Origin: Desulfospira joergensenii DSM 10085
GTDB lineage: Bacteria; Desulfobacterota; Desulfobacteria; Desulfobacterales; Desulfobacteraceae
Length of the DNA stretch: 32,000 bases
Direction: 5' to 3'
NCBI RefSeq assembly: GCF_000420085.1
Contig: NZ_ATUG01000001.1
Coordinates: forward strand, 1,479,223 to 1,511,222
Position 1 is the stretch's first letter, and each line of letters starts with the position of its first letter. Shown here piece by piece: positions 159 through 10,479 of the stretch. A model generated the notes under the pieces. It made no database searches and was not told the DNA's origin. It saw nothing but the letters and a program-made list of their open reading frames with translations. The position numbers and the translations under genes are program-made.

Positions 159-1061
159 ATGAAAATTTTGGTTGGATATGACGGCGGAGAAGAGGGCAGG
201 ATGGCCTTGTCCCTGGCAAGGGATATTGCGGGATTTCATCTCGCCTTTGTCTATGTGGTCACCTCCATGCAGGGGGGATCCTCTGAAAAGCAGGCCGACA
301 TTGAAAAGGCTGAGAAAGGTCTGGACTTTGCCCGGCGGCTCATGGAGAACTCCGGGATTCAATGTGAATGCCTCCAAAGCGTCCGGGGGCTTTCCGCCGG
401 AGAAGACCTGGTCAAATTTGCCCGGGAAAACGATATTGACCATATTTTCCTGGGGATCCGGAAAAAATCCCGCGCCCAGAAAGCCCTCCTGGGCTCCACG
501 GCCCGGTACGTGATCCTCAAGGCTCACTGCCCGGTGACCTCGGTAAAATTTGATGTGGATGCCGTGCCTTCCGACAAGCTCTTGAGGGATCGCAGGATCC
601 TGGTGGTGGATGACGAACCCGACATCCTGGAAACCATTGAAGAGCTTCTGGACATGTGCACCCTGGAAATGGCCTCATCCTTTGAAGAGGCCAGAAAGCT
701 TCTTGAGAAAAACATCTACGACACGGCCATCCTGGACATCATGGGGGTCAGCGGATATGACATCCTCACCCTGGCCCGGGAAAAAGAGGTTCCGGCCCTC
801 ATGCTCACGGCCCATGCCCTGACCCCGGAAAATTTAAAAGAATCCATTTCCAAGGGGGCGGACGCCTATATTCCCAAGGATGAACTGGCCAATCTCTCCG
901 ACCATGTGGCCGACGTCATCCGGACAAGGATCCAGGGCAAACAGGGATACGGAGCCTGGTTTTCCAAGCTCAAGCCCTTTTTTGACAAGTCCTTTGGCAA
1001 GGGATGGCAGGACAAGGACCGGCAGTTCTGGAACAGCTTCAACGATAAATACGGGAAATAG
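159..1061 (+). CDS. Universal stress protein (UspA) domain fused to a CheY-like receiver domain; no recognisable output domain
   Basis: The N-terminal ~135 aa look USP-like (KILVGYDGGEEG..., LLGSTARYVILKAHCPV). The receiver follows (RILVVDDEPDILE, acceptor Asp in AILDIMG, LTAH, IPKD). GGAG lies 8 nt upstream of the ATG. Confidence 0.85.
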   Translation: MKILVGYDGGEEGRMALSLARDIAGFHLAFVYVVTSMQGGSSEKQADIEKAEKGLDFARRLMENSGIQCECLQSVRGLSAGEDLVKFARENDIDHIFLGIRKKSRAQKALLGSTARYVILKAHCPVTSVKFDVDAVPSDKLLRDRRILVVDDEPDILETIEELLDMCTLEMASSFEEARKLLEKNIYDTAILDIMGVSGYDILTLAREKEVPALMLTAHALTPENLKESISKGADAYIPKDELANLSDHVADVIRTRIQGKQGYGAWFSKLKPFFDKSFGKGWQDKDRQFWNSFNDKYGK

Positions 1062-1314
1062 GGCAGAAAAACTTCACCTAAACCCGGGACTTCGATGGTT
1101 CGACGGCATTTTGGGCAGGCTAAGCTGTCGATTTTGTAATTGGGCTTGTCCACTACAAAAGAAATCAACACAATTCCGGTTGATCCCTAAAAGTCAACAA
1201 AATAGACGGAATCAAGACCAAGCATGCGCTTTTTTTTCAGCAACCTTTCTGAAATAAGATCTATCCTTTAATCACTCTTTTCTTCACGGTTTCTTCATAA
1301 TAGTGGTGCTATTT

Positions 1315-1334
1315 TGTCCACTAATGTCCACTAA
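1315..1334 (+). promoter_or_regulatory. Perfect tandem 10-bp direct repeat TGTCCACTAA x2; candidate OmpR/PhoB-family response-regulator box
   Basis: TGTCCACTAA occurs at 1315-1324 and 1325-1334. A third near-copy, TGTCCACTAC, is at 1147-1156, and an inverted partial copy TAGTGG is at 1301-1306. The tandem sits about 12 nt upstream of a weak -10-like TATGAA (1347-1352) and 45 nt upstream of the ATG at 1379. Confidence 0.45.
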
Positions 1335-1378
1335 AATGTGTACCCATATGAAGAGAAGGCTTGAGAGTGAAGTATTAT

Positions 1379-2152
1379 ATGACCGGCCAACATCCGGCAA
1401 AGGGATTTTATCCAAAAACAGATCCCTCTTTATCCATGCGATTCCGATTTTTTCCATCCACAGGTCTATGGATGACGGTGCTCCCTGTATCTATTCTTGC
1501 TGTTGCAATTATTCTTGAATACAGCGGACTGGATATCTGGTGGGAGTCAATCTTTTTTGATGCCTCAAGCAGTTCCTGGCCCTATCGTGATCAATGGCTC
1601 TTTGAGAAGGTGATTCATGAAGGGGGAAGGTTTTTCAATATCCTTACCGCCGGGATCTGGGTCATGGGTTTTGTTGCTGCTTTTCTGCATAAGCCTTCCA
1701 AAAAATATCGAAGACCCTTACTCTATTTTCTGATCGCCGCTGCCGCAGGTCCGGTTATCGTCGGCATCATCAAACAGACAACCCATATTTACACCCCATG
1801 GGATATCATCCCTTTTTCCGGTTCTCTTCCCTATATCCGTTTGTTTGACCCTGTCCCAAACGGTCTTCCTGTGGGACAGGCTTTCCCCGCAGGGCATGCC
1901 TCCGGCGGGTATGCTTTTTTCAGCCTTTATTTTTTATTTTATCACCTAGGATTTCCCCCTAAAAAATACGGTCTTGCTGTCGGATTGTTCCTGGGGACCA
2001 TTTACGGATTCGGCCAGCAGGCCAGAGGTGCCCATTTTCCCAGTCACGACCTGTTTTCCTTGGTCATCTGCTGGTATTCCGCATTTTTTATCTATTATTT
2101 GTTTTATCCCAAACAATGGAGAGGATTGTTCAATGATTCCTGCAATTTTTAA
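1379..2152 (+). CDS. PAP2-family (type 2 phosphatidic acid/lipid phosphatase) membrane protein
   Basis: Multi-TM protein with PAP2 motifs PAGHASGG and ARGAHFPSHD. The track starts at a TTG (1361). I prefer the ATG at 1379, which has GAGAGTGAAG upstream; the ATG at 1436 is also possible. The stop overlaps the next gene's start by 20 nt. Confidence 0.8.
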   Translation: MTGQHPAKGFYPKTDPSLSMRFRFFPSTGLWMTVLPVSILAVAIILEYSGLDIWWESIFFDASSSSWPYRDQWLFEKVIHEGGRFFNILTAGIWVMGFVAAFLHKPSKKYRRPLLYFLIAAAAGPVIVGIIKQTTHIYTPWDIIPFSGSLPYIRLFDPVPNGLPVGQAFPAGHASGGYAFFSLYFLFYHLGFPPKKYGLAVGLFLGTIYGFGQQARGAHFPSHDLFSLVICWYSAFFIYYLFYPKQWRGLFNDSCNF

Positions 2153-4184
2153 AACTCCCAAGACACGGTTTACCCTAATATTCATGCTGTCCGCGATCAC
2201 CCTTATCGGTTTTGCCTTGATGAGGGGTGTTCTGCTGATTCGGGCCCGGCCTTTTATCGATGACCTGACATCCGACTGGGTTTATATTTTCGGCCAGGGA
2301 TTGATCTATGACATCTCCTTTATCAGTTATTTTTTTATCCCTTTTGTCCTTTTCTTTCTGATCCTGCCCAATAAATGGCTGAGCAGTAAAATAATCAAGT
2401 ATCTGGTCCAGGCCGGATCCTTCCTGGTTCTCTACGGGCTTGGATTCTGCATGGTTGCTGAATGGTGCTTCTGGAGCGAATTTGGTGTCAGGTTCAATTT
2501 TATCTCCGTGGACTACCTGGTCTACAGGAGAGAAGTCACAGACAATATATTGCAATCCTACCCGGTGTTTTTTATCCTGCCGTGTCTTCTCATTCTCACG
2601 GGCTTTGTATTCTATCTTATCCGTCCTGCAATCTTAGGGTCTCTTACCCTAGAGGAGTCCTTTAAAAAACGAACGATAATTGCCGGATTGCTCCTGACGC
2701 TTCCGTTGATCTCCTTTTTCGGAATCAATCAGTCCCAGAGACGCTTTTCCGACAACAACTATGTGAATGAACTGGCATCCAACGGCCCTTACCAGCTCTT
2801 TGCCGCTTTCCGGAACAATCGGCTGGATTACCGGCAATTCTACGCAACTGAGAACGATTATGACCTTTCAAAATGCCTAAAAAAACAGGTCCAAGAGGAA
2901 GGCAGAATGTCCGGCGAGGATACCTATAATATCGGCAGATACATCAAGGCTCCAGGCCCCGCCAAAAAACTGAATGTGATGCTGATTTCCGTGGAAAGTT
3001 TGAGCGCAAAATTTTTGACCCGGTTCGGACAACAAGAAGACATCACCCCGTTCATGGATCGATGGTTCAGGCAGGGACTACTTTTTACCAATTTTTATGC
3101 CACCGGGACCCGGACCACCAGAGGCCTTGAAGCTATCACCCTGTCCATCCCGCCCACACCGGGCCGATCCATTGTCAAGCGCCCGGACAACAATCGGATG
3201 TACAGCCTGGGCAAAGTATTCAAAGACTTGGGATACGACACGGCCTTCCTATACGGGGGAAGAGGTTTTTTCGACAACATGAATGCTTTTTTCTCGGGAA
3301 ACGGCTATCGGATTGTGGATCAGTCCCGCTTGAGCAGCAGGGAGACCACATTTAAGAATGCATGGGGCGTGTGCGACGAGGATATATATAACCGGGCCAT
3401 CCGTGAGGCCAACCGTGCACACAGGACCCAAAAACCCTTTTTCTTTCACATCATGACGACCAGCAACCACCAGCCTTTTACCTTTCCTGGGGGCAAAATA
3501 GATCTGGCACCCGGAGAAGGCAAGGGAGGCAGCGGACGTTCCGGCGGGGTAAAATATACCGATTATGCCCTAAAGCAGTTGATAAAGCAGGCAAAGAAGC
3601 AACCCTGGTTTGAGGATACGGTATTTGTGGTCGTGGCGGATCATTGCGCTGGCAGCGCCGGGAAATTAGGCCTGCCGGTTGAAAAATACCATATCCCGCT
3701 GTTTATCTATTCGCCAAAACATATACTTCCCAAAGAGGCACAGGCCCTTTCCAGCCAAATTGACCTTGCCCCCACTCTGCTGGCCTTGTTGAACTTCTCC
3801 TATGAAAGCTTCTTTTTCGGTAAGGATATTCTCTCTCCTGACTTTAAAGGCCGGGCCCTGATCGCCAACTACCAGAAGCTGGGACTGTTAAAAAAAAAGG
3901 AGCTGCTCTTTTTATCTCCTGGAAAGGAAATTACCCGGATGGTGCTGGGTGATCCGGTCCTTGAAAGGGTATCCGGGGATTATCCCGGAGTCAGGGAACT
4001 GATGGCATATTACCAGGGGGCGGACTATGTATTCACCCATCGGTTAAACCGGTGGGCCGAGTCTTCAGGCCATTTGGTTCAAAACAAGGCTTCTTCCCCG
4101 AACCGATATATGAAAAAGAAGACCGGTATAGAGAACATTCTCAAGGCGGCCGGATATTTTATTTTATTCTCTGACAGGACTTAA
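2133..4184 (+). CDS. LTA synthase / phosphoglycerol-transferase-like sulfatase-domain membrane protein (alkaline phosphatase superfamily)
   Basis: Five N-terminal TM helices are followed by a sulfatase-type domain (MLISVESLSAKF, GTRTTRGLEAITLS, MTTSNHQPF, VVVADHCAGS). The track ORF (1974) includes an N-terminal extension that reads through the PAP2 gene. The ATG at 2133 (MIPAIFKTPK...) begins the first TM helix. Confidence 0.85.
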   Translation: MIPAIFKTPKTRFTLIFMLSAITLIGFALMRGVLLIRARPFIDDLTSDWVYIFGQGLIYDISFISYFFIPFVLFFLILPNKWLSSKIIKYLVQAGSFLVLYGLGFCMVAEWCFWSEFGVRFNFISVDYLVYRREVTDNILQSYPVFFILPCLLILTGFVFYLIRPAILGSLTLEESFKKRTIIAGLLLTLPLISFFGINQSQRRFSDNNYVNELASNGPYQLFAAFRNNRLDYRQFYATENDYDLSKCLKKQVQEEGRMSGEDTYNIGRYIKAPGPAKKLNVMLISVESLSAKFLTRFGQQEDITPFMDRWFRQGLLFTNFYATGTRTTRGLEAITLSIPPTPGRSIVKRPDNNRMYSLGKVFKDLGYDTAFLYGGRGFFDNMNAFFSGNGYRIVDQSRLSSRETTFKNAWGVCDEDIYNRAIREANRAHRTQKPFFFHIMTTSNHQPFTFPGGKIDLAPGEGKGGSGRSGGVKYTDYALKQLIKQAKKQPWFEDTVFVVVADHCAGSAGKLGLPVEKYHIPLFIYSPKHILPKEAQALSSQIDLAPTLLALLNFSYESFFFGKDILSPDFKGRALIANYQKLGLLKKKELLFLSPGKEITRMVLGDPVLERVSGDYPGVRELMAYYQGADYVFTHRLNRWAESSGHLVQNKASSPNRYMKKKTGIENILKAAGYFILFSDRT

Positions 4185-4334
4185 GGGCGCTTGAATTCCA
4201 GAATCGGCCTTCCGGCAGGAGATGATGGGTTTTCTATTGTAATGGTATGGCCCCTTATTCTTATATAAAATTTGTTATTTGGCCGATATCCGGGTATTCT
4301 CAAACCAGAATACCGCATATGGAAAAATCTTGAG

Positions 4335-5006
4335 ATGAACATATTAATCGTTGATGATGATACAGGGCTGCTGGATCAATTGAGAACTGCCCTGAAAAGA
4401 AAGCATTATGGGGTGGACACTGCTGAAAACGGAGAGCAGGCCCTGGACAAGATATTTGACCTGCCCTATGACCTGATCCTCTTGGATATCATGCTTCCCC
4501 GCATGGACGGGTTGACTGTCCTCAAAGAGGTCCGTGACGCCGGGATGGATATGCCCATACTCATGCTCACGGCAAGAAGTGATGTCCAGGATAGGGTCAA
4601 AGGCCTGGACCATGGTGCGGACGACTATCTTGCCAAGCCCTTTTCCATGGCCGAGCTGATGGCTCGAATCCGGGCGATGCTGAGAAGAAAAGGGAACCGG
4701 AATCCAATTCTCGAAGCCGGGCCGGTCTGTCTGGATACGGTTAAGCGAAAAGTAACCCTGAATGGAGAGGAAGTCCATCTGACAGCGAAAGAATTTTCAA
4801 TCCTTGAATTTCTTTTACATAACAGGGGCAGTGCCGTATCACGGTTCAACCTGGCCGAACATATATGGGGAGAGGAGTTCGACCCTTTTTCAATGTCCAA
4901 CTATGTGGATGTTCATATCAAAAACCTGAGAAAAAAAATGACACCCCATGGAGATGCCCCCATTATTAAAACCATCCGGGGCATTGGGTTTATCATTGAA
5001 GAATAG
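4335..5006 (+). CDS. OmpR/PhoB-family DNA-binding response regulator
   Basis: MNILIVDDD..., acceptor Asp in LILLDIMLPRMDG, LMLTAR, and a winged-helix C-terminus (LTAKEFSILEFLL..., IKTIRGIGF). The track start at 4272 is a TTG; the ATG at 4335 gives the canonical N-terminus. Confidence 0.9.
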   Translation: MNILIVDDDTGLLDQLRTALKRKHYGVDTAENGEQALDKIFDLPYDLILLDIMLPRMDGLTVLKEVRDAGMDMPILMLTARSDVQDRVKGLDHGADDYLAKPFSMAELMARIRAMLRRKGNRNPILEAGPVCLDTVKRKVTLNGEEVHLTAKEFSILEFLLHNRGSAVSRFNLAEHIWGEEFDPFSMSNYVDVHIKNLRKKMTPHGDAPIIKTIRGIGFIIEE

Positions 5007-5008
5007 GC

Positions 5009-6400
5009 ATGAAAATCCGTAAAAAAATAACCCTCTGGATTTCCGGAACAGCCCTTTTGTCAACCATTGTATTCTCATCCATTATTTTCTGGGAATTGAC
5101 GGAAGAGCCTTTCAAACTGATCGACAAGGAAATCCAGCATATGGCACTTGTTCTGGCTGGCAGGATAAAGGATGCCGGGAGTTTGGGAGATACTTTTGAC
5201 TTGAACGGCATGCCCTATGACCCGGACGATTACTGGATCAGGGTCAAAAATGATCAGGGTCAGGTGCTCTACCAATCCAAACTTACGGAGTTTGCCGATC
5301 TTTTTGTCCCCAATGGTAAATCCAGGTACCTGATCGAAAAACATATTCCAAGATCCAGAATTTGGTTAAGACAGGACAGCAAGGATGACGTATTGTTTAG
5401 AGTCATGGTCGTACGTGAGCAGGTCAGCGGCCGTCCTGTAGAAATCCGTATTGCAAAACCCATTGAAGACCTTGAAGAAGAATTGATAGATCTTGCTGTT
5501 TATATTGGGATCAGCCTTTCTTTTTGTGCGCTGACCATTTTTATTCTGAGCTATGCTCTGGCCGGACGGATATTAAGGCCGATTTCATCCATTATCAATC
5601 AATCAAAGGAAATCAGCGAAAAATCCCTGGATAAACGAATCCCCCTGGAAAAAACCCAGGATGAACTCTATGATCTCTCTGTTGCTTTGAACAGGATGTT
5701 TGACAGAATCCAGCATTCCTTTAATCAACAGAAAGAATTTATCGGGAATGCATCCCATGAATTAAAAAGCCCGATCACCCTCTTAATGCTGGCCCAGGAA
5801 GATATGTTGATGAGTGAAAATTTATCCTCTTCCGCAGAAGACAGTTTGATGAAGCAGCTCGAGACAAGCCGCCGTATGAGCCATTTGGTGAAAAACCTGC
5901 TGGATCTTTCAAGGCTGGAACAGCGGGATGTTTTATACACAGATCGGGTGGACCTGGCCGCACTGGCTGAAAGGGTTCTCAAGGATTATAGCGATGTGAT
6001 GGCCGAAAAACAGATTTCCGTCCAAAATCAGATGAATGAGCCCTGTCCTGTTATCGGTGATCCGGAAAAACTATTTCGCCTCTTTGTCAATCTCATTGAT
6101 AATGCCATCCGGTACAACCTTCCCACCCAGGGGACTATAAAAATCATGGCAATGAAATCCGAAACAGAGGTCTGTGTTGAAATTTTAAATTCAGGTCATG
6201 AAATTCCGGAGCAAGACCTCTCCCGTTTGTTCGAGCAGTTTTACCGGGTTGAGAAATCCAGGGCCCAAGCTTTTGGAGGATCAGGGCTGGGTCTGGCGAT
6301 TGCTCAAAAAATCGTCCGTCTTCATCATGGCAGAATCGCCATTACCAATGGGCCGGGTCAGATGATACAAACAACGGTTTGGCTTCCGGTAAAGGGCTGA
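5009..6400 (+). CDS. Sensor histidine kinase (two TM helices, periplasmic loop, HAMP, HisKA, HATPase_c)
   Basis: H-box GNASHELKSPIT, N-box NLIDNAIRY, G-box GGSGLGLAIA. The ATG lies 2 nt after the response-regulator stop, which indicates translational coupling. Confidence 0.9.
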   Translation: MKIRKKITLWISGTALLSTIVFSSIIFWELTEEPFKLIDKEIQHMALVLAGRIKDAGSLGDTFDLNGMPYDPDDYWIRVKNDQGQVLYQSKLTEFADLFVPNGKSRYLIEKHIPRSRIWLRQDSKDDVLFRVMVVREQVSGRPVEIRIAKPIEDLEEELIDLAVYIGISLSFCALTIFILSYALAGRILRPISSIINQSKEISEKSLDKRIPLEKTQDELYDLSVALNRMFDRIQHSFNQQKEFIGNASHELKSPITLLMLAQEDMLMSENLSSSAEDSLMKQLETSRRMSHLVKNLLDLSRLEQRDVLYTDRVDLAALAERVLKDYSDVMAEKQISVQNQMNEPCPVIGDPEKLFRLFVNLIDNAIRYNLPTQGTIKIMAMKSETEVCVEILNSGHEIPEQDLSRLFEQFYRVEKSRAQAFGGSGLGLAIAQKIVRLHHGRIAITNGPGQMIQTTVWLPVKG

Positions 6401-6417: not shown

Positions 6418-7053
6418 TCAATAAACCGCCCATGAAGCAGTGAAAAATCCTGTTTCTCTCAGGCCTTCTATGACTTCAAGAATTCCCACGATCCATACAA
6501 ACCACAGCGCGCTGAATATGTGAATCCGATACACAACCGGGTTTACCTGATAGGTTTCAGGTTCTTCAAATATTGAAATATCAGGGAAAAAAGCAGGGAC
6601 CTTTTGAGTATATTTTTCAAATACCGATCCAAAAATCGATCGGAGTCTTTTTTCTTCACTTTTTATCACAAATGGATAATAACTTGAGAATAATGCGACA
6701 AAGAGAATGGGGAAGGTTAGGGTTTCTGTACAAAAACCAATCCCCAGAACCCCTACCATACTGAAAAGATAAAGGGGATTTCTGCACAGAGAATACGGGC
6801 CTTTGGTAATCAATTGTTCATCTTTGTACCCGGCGACGTAAAGAGAACACCACATCCGTCCCAAAGAGGCAATCCCAACCAAGACGATGCCGGTAACAAA
6901 CAAAATGAAGGTGAATATTTCATTTTCATTTTCCCAGTGACTTTTGCATTCGCAGATAAAGAACAAAACCATGACAGCCACCATTCTTGAGATCATTATC
7001 CTGTGTTTTTCAACGTTAAAAGGCATTTTATAATTTATTCCGAATACAGCCAT
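6418..7053 (-). CDS. Isoprenylcysteine carboxyl methyltransferase (ICMT)/phospholipid methyltransferase-family membrane protein
   Basis: Polytopic membrane protein with the family motif GPYSLCRNPLYLFSMVGVLG and EEKRL. The start is uncertain, as several in-frame Met codons exist. Confidence 0.7.
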   Translation of the reverse strand: MAVFGINYKMPFNVEKHRIMISRMVAVMVLFFICECKSHWENENEIFTFILFVTGIVLVGIASLGRMWCSLYVAGYKDEQLITKGPYSLCRNPLYLFSMVGVLGIGFCTETLTFPILFVALFSSYYPFVIKSEEKRLRSIFGSVFEKYTQKVPAFFPDISIFEEPETYQVNPVVYRIHIFSALWFVWIVGILEVIEGLRETGFFTASWAVY

Positions 7054-7599
7054 GTGAAATTATCCTATGTGCTTGGAAGCATTTTCCCTTTTTGGTATTT
7101 TTCAACGAGATCCTATCGCACATAATATGAAGAAACCATGAAGAGGATAAAACAATCAAAACTTGACTAAACTGAGTTATATAAAAATAAGGGATTGGGA
7201 CGAATTGCTCATGAGAGGTATTATCGATCATAAGAGTCTGCTTGGAAATAAACTTCAATCACAAAACCAAGCTTGGGAGATCAGATTTTAAAAATTCTCC
7301 GGTATTCGCGAAGGAAATGGGACCAAGCCTTGATTTTATACTTTCTATATCCGGGGAAAAATTATTCTATAACTCAAAAATTAAGGATCCCCGTCCTTCA
7401 CTCGAAATAATTCATGCCGGCCATGGGATGCTTCCAGGCCTTCAGGCAATGGTCCGATATTAAATTAATCCATCCCGGCAATTGATTATTTCAGCCGAAA
7501 TTTTCTGCTTTCCAATGGTCTTGTTTTGGGCAGGGCGACAAGGATCACAGATCATAAAAAAGTTGTGAAACCCATTAAAATATTGTAGTTAACCTTCTC

Positions 7600-10479
7600 A
7601 TGAAAAATTCTCCCAAAAAACAGCCGGAATCCGTTTTCGTGTTTAAATGGTTTCTGGTCGCGGCTTTTTTTATTTCAGGAGCCACCTCTTTATCACTCGA
7701 AGTGGCATGGTCCAAAGAGCTTTCTTATCTTCTGGGTGTGGATATTTTTTCCACGACAACCGTGGTAACGGTTTATATGCTGGGGCTGGGATTGGGGGCC
7801 TTGTGTGCCGCCCGGATAAAATGGGAAGCAGGCCTTTCCATAAAGGTATACGGATATCTCCAATTGGGCATCGGCTTTCTCGGGTTGATTTCCATTCCCT
7901 TGTTCAGGAGCACAACCCCGCTGTTTACCTTTCTTCACACCCAATTGGCCTATGACAGCGGATGGTTTCTGGCCGCCCGTTTTTTCATTGTCTTTTTAAT
8001 GATGCTTCTGCCGGTATTTCTCATGGGGATGACCCTGCCGGTGGTCGTGGGGGCATCCTATGACAAAATCAAGGACAGGTATGCCTATCTGACAGGCCTG
8101 CTTTATGGCGCCAATACCCTGGGGGCCCTTTTCGGTACGCTTGCTGCAGGCTTCTATTTTGTTCCCCTGCTGGGAATTCTTAAAACCTGTCTCTATACCG
8201 GTGCAGCAGATCTCATGGTGGGTATCGCCGTATGCCTTTTTCCCAAATGGAAGCCGGCTCTCTTTTTATCCCCTCCGGTAAAATCCCTGAAAAAAAAGAA
8301 AAAAGAACCTGCTGTTACAGAGTCTTCCCGTAAAGATTCTTTTTTTACCCCGAATAAAATTGCATGGGTATTTTTTTTCTCAGGCATCAGTGCCCTGGCA
8401 TATGAGATAATCTGGTTCAGGCTTCTGGCCAGGATTATCGGCCCCTCTGTCCACTCCTTTTCCATCATGCTGGCGACCTACCTTGCCGGCATCGGCCTGG
8501 GGAGCACTTTCGGATCACGTTTGATCCGGCGTTTCGGGGACAGAAAAATGCTCATCACCGTCCTGCTGGGGTTCATTGGCTTTGGCGGCCTTTTTTCGCT
8601 GTTTTTCATAAATGAACTGCCCCTGTGGTACGGGAAAATGTTCATCCAATATACCAGTGATGTCTTTACCTATCGCAACCTTCTGGTGCAGGCGGGCCTG
8701 GCATCCCTGCTCATTCTTCCCGTTACGATTCCTTTGGGCATTTTCTTTCCCACCATTGTCCACTTTTATCGAAAGGAGCAATTGCCCCAAAGATCTCAGC
8801 AAAATACCGAAGTGGGCCATTTATATTTTTTCAACACTATAGGAGGGGTTATCGGCAGTCTTGCGGCAGGCTTCTGGATGCTGCCGGTTTTGGGGATACA
8901 AACTTCATTGATGCTTTCCGCCGGCTTAAGTATTTTCCTGTCCCTGCTTTGGTATCTGAAGAATTCCGATGCCGGCCGGACATCTAAAACCGGTGTCGCC
9001 GCCGGTGTGATTCTCCTGTTCCTGATCGGATGTTTTGCGCACCCGGGAGCGGATCAGGCCGTTCTCAACTCCGGGGTGTATATTGAGATGATCCAAAAGG
9101 AATCCTTTAAAAAAGACATGGACAAAGGACGCCTGGAGCAAGGCCGCTTATTGTACTTTGAGGAAGGCATTAACAACAGCGTTGCTGTTGTGGGGAACAA
9201 ATTCAACGACGGAAACCTGACCCTTCACCTGAGCGGCGGGTGGGTTTCATCAACAGAATTTCATGGCCGGATGCATCTGGAATTTCTGGGCCACCTCCCC
9301 ATGCTGTTTGCCAAAAAAACAGAAACCGTCGGTATTATCGGATTCGGTACCGGCGTGACCGCAGGGAATGTACTATTGTATCCTGATGTTAAACAGGTCA
9401 ATATTTTCGAGCTGGAACAGGGTGTGGTTAATGCCAGCAGATATTTTAATCACATCAACGATCACCCCATGAAAGACCCCCGGGCCAATGTGATGATGAT
9501 TGACGGCAGGAGCCATATCACCTACAGCGGCATAAAATACGATATTATAACCACGGATCCGATCCACCCCTTTGTTGCCGGAGCGGCAAATCTGTACACA
9601 AGAGATTTCTACCAAACGGTTTCAGCCCATTTGAATCCCGGCGGTGTTTTCTGTCAATGGATCCCTTTATCCGGTATTTCGGAAGACTCCTATAATGTTA
9701 TCTTAAACACGGTACATGATGTGTTTCCCCATCTTGCCCTGTTTACCTTTTTCGGGGAGTCTGTGGTCATCGGTTCCGCGACCCCGTTTCAAACACCGTG
9801 GTCAACCGTGGAAAAACGGTTCTATTCAAAACGCGTACATGAAGATTTTAAAAAAATGGATTTTCTCACGCCCTACAATCTGGCGGCATTCTTCCTGGGC
9901 GCTGAAAAAGAACTCAATGACTATCTCTCTCCATTTGCCAAGCTCAGCACAGATGATAATGTTTGGCTTGAACATCAAATTCCCATGGATATGATGAATC
10001 CGTCCCGGGCCAACCTCTATTTCAAGCTCAGTAAAACCTTCCAAAAGAACAACACAACCGGTTTTATATCTCTTTTCCCGGGAATATCTCCGGAAAAACT
10101 GTCCAAAGAGATGGCCGGGGTTGCAAGGAACGGGGCCCTGGATTATCAAATTGCGATGAAGGAAAAAGCAGATAATAAATTTGAGCAAATGGAAACCCAT
10201 TTAAAGAGTGCCATTTCCGACCGGAACAACATCCATGCTTACGGGGCAGGAATCGAACTGGTCAATTTCCTGGCCAAATCCGGGCGCGACAGGGAAGTAT
10301 TGCCAGTCACCGCTTTTCTCCAGAGGAACTTTCCGACTTACCCCGAGGCGTATCAGGCACGGATAGAGGCGTTACATGCCCTTGGAGAAAAAAAAGAGGC
10401 CGAGGACACCCTTACCCAGGCCCTGCTCTACCTTCCGGATAATCCGGATTTACTTAAAATGAAGTCCATAAAAGAGTAA
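7600..10479 (+). CDS. Fused polytopic membrane (MFS-like) / spermidine-synthase-like methyltransferase-fold / C-terminal TPR-like protein
   Basis: About 480 aa of repeated TM helices come first. A SpeE-like core follows (IGFGTGVTAGN, YDIITTDPIHPF, LNPGGVFCQW), then a helical repeat tail (AYQARIEALHALGEKKEAEDTLTQALLYLPDNPDL). Confidence 0.8.
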   Translation: MKNSPKKQPESVFVFKWFLVAAFFISGATSLSLEVAWSKELSYLLGVDIFSTTTVVTVYMLGLGLGALCAARIKWEAGLSIKVYGYLQLGIGFLGLISIPLFRSTTPLFTFLHTQLAYDSGWFLAARFFIVFLMMLLPVFLMGMTLPVVVGASYDKIKDRYAYLTGLLYGANTLGALFGTLAAGFYFVPLLGILKTCLYTGAADLMVGIAVCLFPKWKPALFLSPPVKSLKKKKKEPAVTESSRKDSFFTPNKIAWVFFFSGISALAYEIIWFRLLARIIGPSVHSFSIMLATYLAGIGLGSTFGSRLIRRFGDRKMLITVLLGFIGFGGLFSLFFINELPLWYGKMFIQYTSDVFTYRNLLVQAGLASLLILPVTIPLGIFFPTIVHFYRKEQLPQRSQQNTEVGHLYFFNTIGGVIGSLAAGFWMLPVLGIQTSLMLSAGLSIFLSLLWYLKNSDAGRTSKTGVAAGVILLFLIGCFAHPGADQAVLNSGVYIEMIQKESFKKDMDKGRLEQGRLLYFEEGINNSVAVVGNKFNDGNLTLHLSGGWVSSTEFHGRMHLEFLGHLPMLFAKKTETVGIIGFGTGVTAGNVLLYPDVKQVNIFELEQGVVNASRYFNHINDHPMKDPRANVMMIDGRSHITYSGIKYDIITTDPIHPFVAGAANLYTRDFYQTVSAHLNPGGVFCQWIPLSGISEDSYNVILNTVHDVFPHLALFTFFGESVVIGSATPFQTPWSTVEKRFYSKRVHEDFKKMDFLTPYNLAAFFLGAEKELNDYLSPFAKLSTDDNVWLEHQIPMDMMNPSRANLYFKLSKTFQKNNTTGFISLFPGISPEKLSKEMAGVARNGALDYQIAMKEKADNKFEQMETHLKSAISDRNNIHAYGAGIELVNFLAKSGRDREVLPVTAFLQRNFPTYPEAYQARIEALHALGEKKEAEDTLTQALLYLPDNPDLLKMKSIKE

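Follow-up and report, generated by a model that had tools for sequence, protein, structure and literature searches.

The 32,000-nt window analysed in this work (Desulfospira joergensenii DSM 10085, contig NZ_ATUG01000001.1, positions 1,479,223 to 1,511,222) carries a group of genes coding for a PAP2 phosphatase, a sulfatase-fold membrane transferase of the LtaS superfamily, a response regulator (RR) of the OmpR/PhoB family and a sensor histidine kinase (HK). All coordinates are those of the window, and the gene calls come from direct reading together with scans for open reading frames (ORFs) and for domains (Pfam, NCBIfam). The initial annotation, made from the sequence alone, had described the four genes as translationally coupled throughout. 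This is correct within each pair, with the PAP2 ORF overlapping the transferase by 20 nt and the kinase ATG coming 2 nt after the regulator stop (5004-5006), but not for the whole set, as 150 nt separate the transferase stop from the regulator start. The organisation is therefore one of two coupled pairs with a 150-nt spacer between them. The same annotation took the PAP2, the LtaS-type transferase and the OmpR/HK pair for a self-contained functional module. The recurrence of this linkage across phyla (see below) bears out the module, but its extent is larger than was claimed, since it also takes in a dgkA remnant and a box-bearing methyltransferase gene, reaching position 7145. No further PAP2 gene and no further PF00884 sulfatase-fold protein was found in the genome, so that both enzymes of the module are sole copies.

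The upstream region was compared with orthologous loci belonging to two genomes of the same genus (G001 and G002), to other members of Desulfobacteraceae and to metagenome contigs. The six aligned promoters share, without a single change, the direct repeat TTCTTCA-N4-TTCTTCA (box 1), both where the operon opens with PAP2 and where, after loss of PAP2, it opens with the transferase. In L045, L046 and L021 the same box precedes the operon by about 100-130 nt, which makes nine loci altogether. When the upstream intergenic region was searched against the genome for repeats or traces of mobile elements, nothing matched apart from box 2, at the methyltransferase gene, which agrees with the box 1 region in 20 of 22 nt. 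The 6.1-Mb genome has two exact sites and seven with one mismatch, and two of these nine flank the module; the reversed box, used as a control on the same genome, gave no sites. In G001 and G002 the box appears additionally upstream of a paralogous LtaS-family gene. From this conservation we infer that TTCTTCA-N4-TTCTTCA is the candidate binding site of the module regulator. The positions of all these features are collected in Table 1, where L026 is the locus of Desulfobacter sp. CP054837 and L027 that of the closest PAP2-bearing relative.

Table 1. Genes and sequence features of the module, followed by the genes on either side of it.
Feature	Position	Strand	Support or remark
Box 1, TTCTTCACGGTTTCTTCA = TTCTTCA-N4-TTCTTCA, direct repeat with 11-bp period; candidate RR site	1280-1297	+	Invariant in six aligned promoters
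Preferred -10 candidate TATTTT, 12 nt after box 1	1310-1315	+	TAnnTT hexamer at this spacing in six promoters
TGTCCACTAA x2, lineage-specific 10-bp tandem duplication, promoter-proximal or 5'-untranslated region (5'-UTR)	1315-1334	+	Gap in five orthologous promoters
Alternative -10 candidate TAAAAT	1332-1337	+	Similar hexamer 25 nt after the box in four relatives
Third repeat copy TTGTCCACTAC, isolated	1146-1156	+	In a stretch without counterpart in relatives; homology with L027 begins near 1252
PAP2 phosphatase, 257 aa	1379-2152 (ATG 1379, stop 2150-2152)	+	Pfam PAP2, E 4e-11
Sulfatase-fold LtaS-superfamily membrane transferase, assigned to the VP1736 family, 683 aa	2133-4184	+	Sulfatase domain, E 5e-45
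dgkA pseudogene remnant	4110-4268	+	tblastn and blastn against intact L027 dgkA
Sigma-70-like element TTGTTA-17 nt-TATTCT, ahead of the RR gene	4272-4300	+	Conserved in L026, L027, L030, L018, L019
OmpR/PhoB-family response regulator (RR), 223 aa	4335-5006	+	Response_reg and Trans_reg_C
Sensor histidine kinase (HK), 463 aa	5009-6400	+	HAMP, HisKA, HATPase_c
ICMT/PEMT-like polytopic membrane methyltransferase	6418-7053	-	Pfam PEMT, E 1.6e-10, and ICMT
Box 2, CTCTTCATGGTTTCTTCA, preceding the methyltransferase ORF by 74 nt	7128-7145	-	Invariant in the window, L026 and L027
USP-receiver fusion, outside the module	159-1061	+	
MFS/spermidine-synthase fusion	7600-10479	+	

The promoter of the first pair had been read as one of the OmpR/PhoB type, a direct-repeat box taking the place of the -35 element. 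It does look so, but the box is TTCTTCA-N4-TTCTTCA, and its period is 11 bp and not 10 bp. With this box at the -35 position and a hexamer downstream, we infer a PhoB-like layout. For the -10 element there are two candidates. The relatives L018, L019, L027 and L030 have TATAAT, TATGAT or TAAAAT 25 nt after box 1, while in the window the duplication (see below) shifts TAAAAT to ~34 nt after the box and puts TAATGT at the ancestral distance. The methyltransferase promoter has a TATAAG or GATAGG hexamer 10 nt after box 2. Because both promoters would then share the same geometry, we lean towards the hexamer at 1310-1315 as the -10; this would place the tandem repeat around the transcription start, where it would only lengthen the 5'-UTR. 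With the alternative -10, the tandem would separate that hexamer from the box. In the same-genus genome G001 there is also a triple box half-site with 11-bp spacing (L132; G001:C1 ~4,607,278-4,607,306, minus strand), 81-92 nt upstream of a gene for a secreted DsbA-like thiol-disulfide oxidoreductase, and in G002 too the box stands as a triple repeat ahead of the DsbA-like gene, which may belong to the same regulon there.

Box 1 is located 18 nt upstream of the perfect tandem of two TGTCCACTAA copies, which was rightly read by the initial annotation and taken for an OmpR/PhoB box of the regulator replacing the -35 element. Such a role would fit with the perfect repetition at a near-helical period upstream of an operon, with the additional copy 168 nt upstream and with the rarity of the unit, as the 10-mer occurs only four times in the 6.1-Mb genome and the tandem 20-mer is unique in it. 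However, all five relatives in the promoter alignment (n=6) are gapped by 8-10 nt exactly at the second repeat copy of the window, and L027 has one diverged copy. The regulators of the orthologous loci are 83-92% identical to that of the window and would be expected to bind the same sequence, but the tandem is lacking there, and absence from orthologous loci is precisely what the annotation had named as speaking against its own proposal. In addition, there is no second site at the methyltransferase promoter or at any other sensible target, and it is the different repeat of box 1 that is invariant. We consider it very improbable that TGTCCACTAA x2 is the regulator's box; according to the alignment it is a recent, lineage-specific 10-bp duplication downstream of the real box and not a conserved operator. 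As a genome-wide regulatory motif TGTCCACTAA was likewise ruled out, having four genomic copies only and no sensible targets.

Two further copies had been reported. That at 1147-1156 is present, although at those coordinates it matches in only 9 of 10 positions; read one base earlier, at 1146-1155, the 10-mer TTGTCCACTA recurs exactly at 1314-1323. The inverted copy at 1301-1306 also exists (TAGTGG, the reverse complement of CCACTA), but it is trivial as a 6-mer and is not conserved. Since the 10-mer is rare genome-wide, three copies within 190 nt are a real local feature, for which local duplication would account. The agreement around the upstream copy extends somewhat further, with TTGTCCACTACAA at 1146-1158 matching the tandem unit plus flank (11/13 vs 1324-1336).

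The spacer between the two gene pairs retains the traces of a lost gene. The relative L027 has an intact dgkA between the transferase and RR genes, and in the window the remnant of this gene shows, in order, an N-terminus fused into the transferase frame, a 10-nt insertion, a stop codon, a ~210-nt deletion and the C-terminal end, the final ~22 residues of the transferase coming from it. No DAGK_prokar gene was detected anywhere in the genome. Directly before the RR start, 109 nt are 84% identical to L027, vs 67% for the flanking coding DNA, and TTGTTA-17 nt-TATTCT is here a candidate separate promoter for RR and HK. A perfect 8-bp inverted repeat (GGTATTCT/AGAATACC, 4293-4314) overlaps the candidate -10 of this promoter; it is kept in L027, nearly so in L026 and not in G001/G002, and may act as an operator or form a hairpin in the RNA.

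The transferase has the architecture of LtaS, with five hydrophobic segments at the N-terminus followed by an extracytoplasmic sulfatase-fold domain with a Thr nucleophile and a Glu/Asp/His metal site. The residues E288, T328, H446, D503 and H504, which align with the nucleophile and metal site of LtaS, are invariant in the family, so the enzyme looks active. This likeness holds for LtaS and OpgB in general, but the curated equivalog models are missed by far: LtaS with 80.5 bits against a cut-off of 970, and OpgB/MdoB (phosphoglycerol transferase I) with 61.9 vs 572 and 47.7 vs 574. Neither Pfam nor NCBIfam gave a match to the EptA N-terminal domain or the EptA family. By these scores the protein is no OpgB or EptA equivalog, in line with the initial annotation. 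Among solved structures the best match is 3LXQ (VP1736 of Vibrio parahaemolyticus; E 1.4e-73, in an alignment of residues 199-603 that takes in the juxtamembrane segment), while LtaS structures follow at 5e-17 or weaker. By curated hidden Markov model scores and this ranking, the transferase is assigned to the VP1736 family, set apart from LtaS, OpgB and EptA equivalogs. Its closest solved relative is itself a structural-genomics entry without assigned function, and our literature search for VP1736 found no paper mentioning it; searches for LtaS with PAP2 and a two-component system in Gram-negatives gave none, and those for the LTA synthase family protein in Pseudomonas nothing relevant. The glycerol-phosphate head group suggested at first is not secure, because the residues that we take to form the glycerol-phosphate pocket of LtaS (H347, W354, R356) align here with other residues, equally invariant (Y374, D381, M383).

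The best NCBIfam match of the PAP2 protein is PAP2 lipid A phosphatase (63.6 bits, below the cut-off of 275). The catalytic motifs of LpxE-like enzymes (Lys...Pro C1, PxGH C2, His C3) are retained, and the window protein has Kx6(T/C)PW, PxGH and (R/Q)GAHFxSH(D/N) in common with the Pap2 adjoining Pseudomonas colR. The residue classes are those listed for LpxE, and the colR-adjacent Pap2 has itself been predicted as LpxE (PMC8306577). Best match and motifs place the PAP2 in the LpxE-like subfamily, with lipid A activity as a prediction only. As to the methyltransferase, it reaches 41.9 bits against a cut-off of 325 for LmtA, the lipid A 1-phosphate methyltransferase, and its similarity is at family level only (ICMT/PEMT). 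It is found at the same position in L026 and L027 and no orthologue was detected at E 1e-10 in G001, G002, G006 or G039, so its link with the module is limited to the subclade of the window. Its translation probably begins not at 7053 but at the second ATG (7026), which gives 202 aa, the length called in L026 and L027.

The regulator and kinase have the domains of an OmpR/PhoB two-component system, namely a receiver with a winged-helix Trans_reg_C in one and HAMP, HisKA and HATPase_c in the other. The kinase has a ~134-aa periplasmic domain, ~30 residues longer than that of ColS, with an ExxE motif (EDLEEE, 153-158) before the second transmembrane segment (TM2, 162-180), a position of ExxE common to the window HK, ColS and the Methylobacter HK. 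In the tree, the window RR falls within a 100%-supported clade of Desulfobacterales regulators adjacent to LtaS-family genes.

The transferase family comprises at least 593 related loci (43-72% identity) in Desulfobacterota, Methylococcales, Pseudomonas, Betaproteobacteria, Campylobacterota, Bacteroidia, Magnetococcales and a Pirellulales bin. Linkage was surveyed in the 57 loci flanked on each side by at least 3.5 kb: PAP2 lies beside the transferase in 20, an OmpR-type RR in 25 and both in 16, in several phyla and with varying gene order. PAP2 is upstream of the transferase in some loci and downstream in others. The order in L027 is PAP2-LtaS-DgkA-RR-HK, followed by the methyltransferase gene in minus-strand orientation, while the Methylobacter locus L028 has RR-HK followed by PAP2-LtaS; dgkA is linked in L027, L031 and L045. 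Several relatives have lost dgkA. PAP2 is missing in G001, G002 and L026, the last retaining only its leader and last codons ahead of the transferase. An IS3-family element is found directly upstream of the module in L026 (4452-5620). The transferase is present in all of these relatives, and the regulator pair in most of them (none lies within ~5 kb in G006), so the core would be the transferase with the two-component system, the other genes being accessory. The regulators adjoining the transferase family are spread over at least five OmpR-family clades in the tree, which suggests repeated recruitment by different OmpR-type systems. In an uncultured Desulfobacter (L030:5219-10000), a single operon ahead of the regulator pair contains PAP2 and two LtaS-family genes, first a paralogue (31% identity) and then the orthologue, an arrangement that points to diversification of the transferase.

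By analogy of gene content and control, the closest analogues of the module are the lipid A remodelling regulons of ColRS, RaxRH and CarRS. The ColRS regulon of Pseudomonas includes pap2 (PA4382/PP0900), dgkA, the warA methyltransferase gene, eptA and eptC, all of them ColR targets (PMC2689224; bioRxiv 10.1101/2021.12.14.472530), and pagL. As in the module, its OmpR-type pair is flanked by PAP2 and methyltransferase genes, its targets include dgkA and alkaline-phosphatase-fold transferases, and its kinase has ExxE before TM2. In P. corrugata the order is lipopolysaccharide (LPS) kinase, methyltransferase, kinase and regulator, and then divergently an LtaS-family gene, PAP2 and groEL, so the same LtaS-family gene stands between colR and pap2; this order agrees with the described ColRS locus (PMC2689224; bioRxiv 10.1101/2021.12.14.472530). 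The intergenic region contains a TTTTTCAC-N6-TTCAC repeat matching the ColR box, a T-rich direct repeat ending in TTCAC with an 11-bp period (PMC2689224). Set against the ColR consensus (T/C)(T/C)NA(C/G)NN(T/C)TTTTT(C/G)AC, the module box TTCTTCAC-N3-TTCTTCAT shares the 11-bp period and the TTCA(C) core, but its tract has C in place of T and the half-site is TTCTTCA instead of TTTTTCAC. The methyltransferase also differs, being of the membrane ICMT/PEMT type and not a class I S-adenosylmethionine enzyme, and the module RR lies outside the ColR clade without being a reciprocal best hit.

Orthology of the window system with ColRS was accordingly rejected, as its RR forms part of a separate 100%-supported clade and its best P. 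corrugata matches are away from the colR locus. A different RR of the genome (C1:583164) does fall in the ColR clade. The system of this RR, at G000:C1 ~580.5-583.2 kb (L161:3569-6192, minus strand), has behind it in the same operon an ICMT/PEMT-like methyltransferase 46% identical to that of the window; it is preceded by a four-fold 11-bp TTTTTCAC-type repeat (L161:6290-6360) matching the Pseudomonas ColR box and has an IS110 transposase on its divergent side.

The RaxRH-eptA-lpxE-arnT genes of Xanthomonas and the eptA-lpxE pair of Helicobacter pylori (PMC8306577) resemble the module in that a PAP2 lipid A phosphatase gene overlaps that of a head-group transferase, and in that they adjoin, or are controlled by, a two-component system. 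They differ in that the module transferase is of the LtaS/VP1736 type and not EptA, and there is no arnT. In Vibrio vulnificus, CarRS directly activates dgkA-eptA-mdoB, and the whole operon is required for full polymyxin B tolerance (PMC10433830). Shared with the module is the two-component control of DgkA and of transferases with the alkaline-phosphatase fold, of which one in the Vibrio operon carries an MdoB-like annotation, but EptA is present there and absent from the module, and the CarR motif GACA-N6-TACA (PMC10433830) is unlike the module box.

Taking these comparisons together with the locus itself, we favour, with moderate confidence, a compact, signal-controlled envelope remodelling regulon. 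The kinase, through its periplasmic ExxE domain and probably on a cationic or metal signal, would phosphorylate the OmpR-family regulator, which would bind TTCTTCA-N4-TTCTTCA overlapping the -35 of two promoters. The box 1 promoter would drive PAP2 and the LtaS-family transferase, and formerly dgkA too, and the box 2 promoter the divergently placed ICMT-like methyltransferase, while the RR and HK genes would be transcribed from their own conserved promoter-like element in the spacer. Most likely the transferase would move a phospho-head-group from a glycerophospholipid donor to an acceptor on the periplasmic face, with release of diacylglycerol, a by-product suggested by the dgkA linkage in the three loci mentioned above and by the dgkA remnant in the window. 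The favoured acceptor would be lipid A or the LPS core, and the LpxE-like PAP2 would trim phosphate on the same acceptor. Several observations weigh against this regulon. The presumed LtaS pocket positions carry other invariant residues, and two -10 candidates compete. The RR is not a ColR orthologue, so that the ColS signal is not transferable. Close relatives with the transferase have lost PAP2 and dgkA, so neither is strictly required, and the complete loss of dgkA from this genome could mean that the module is decaying.

Decay would leave the module as a remnant no longer useful in this genome, and besides the dgkA pseudogene without any other copy it could claim the fresh 10-bp duplication in the promoter and, in relatives, the insertion sequence and the deletion of PAP2. 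Against it, the ORFs of PAP2, transferase, RR, HK and methyltransferase are all intact with their catalytic residues retained, and so are both boxes, for which reason we hold it improbable. A more serious alternative keeps the regulatory layout and changes the acceptor, which would be not lipid A or LPS but periplasmic glucans (OpgB-like) or another surface glycan (GacH-like), or else the enzymes would take part in the turnover of membrane phospholipids, where PAP2 and DgkA would do no more than keep phosphatidic acid and diacylglycerol in balance. Among curated families LtaS and OpgB do come nearest by score, PAP2 is dispensable in close relatives, and such a balance by Pap2 and DgkA has been discussed in the ColR literature (PMC2689224). 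However, those scores are all far under the equivalog cut-offs, the PAP2 belongs by best hit and motifs to the LpxE-like or lipid A phosphatase subfamily, its overlap with the transferase mirrors the eptA-lpxE pairs (PMC8306577), and no other sulfatase-fold enzyme exists in the genome to serve as EptA. We therefore think a different acceptor rather unlikely and keep lipid A or the LPS core as the preferred one.

Two-component control of lipid A remodelling is textbook knowledge for enterics and pseudomonads. For the window, the wrong operator assignment is replaced by a testable one, with two conserved boxes in a small regulon. In a wider context we put forward, as a tentative possibility only, that the VP1736-like clade may be an unrecognised class of lipid A/LPS head-group transferases replacing EptA where EptA is absent, as here. 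Their partners would be an LpxE-like phosphatase and DgkA, joined in some lineages by a membrane methyltransferase, and different OmpR-type systems that sense metals or cations, among them ColRS of fluorescent pseudomonads, would have recruited them repeatedly. The family is large and widespread, has a solved structure and sits in the genomic slot of EptA in well-studied systems, in some pseudomonads beside colR. Defining the reaction of this transferase would fill a gap in envelope biochemistry and assign a function to several hundred related genes.

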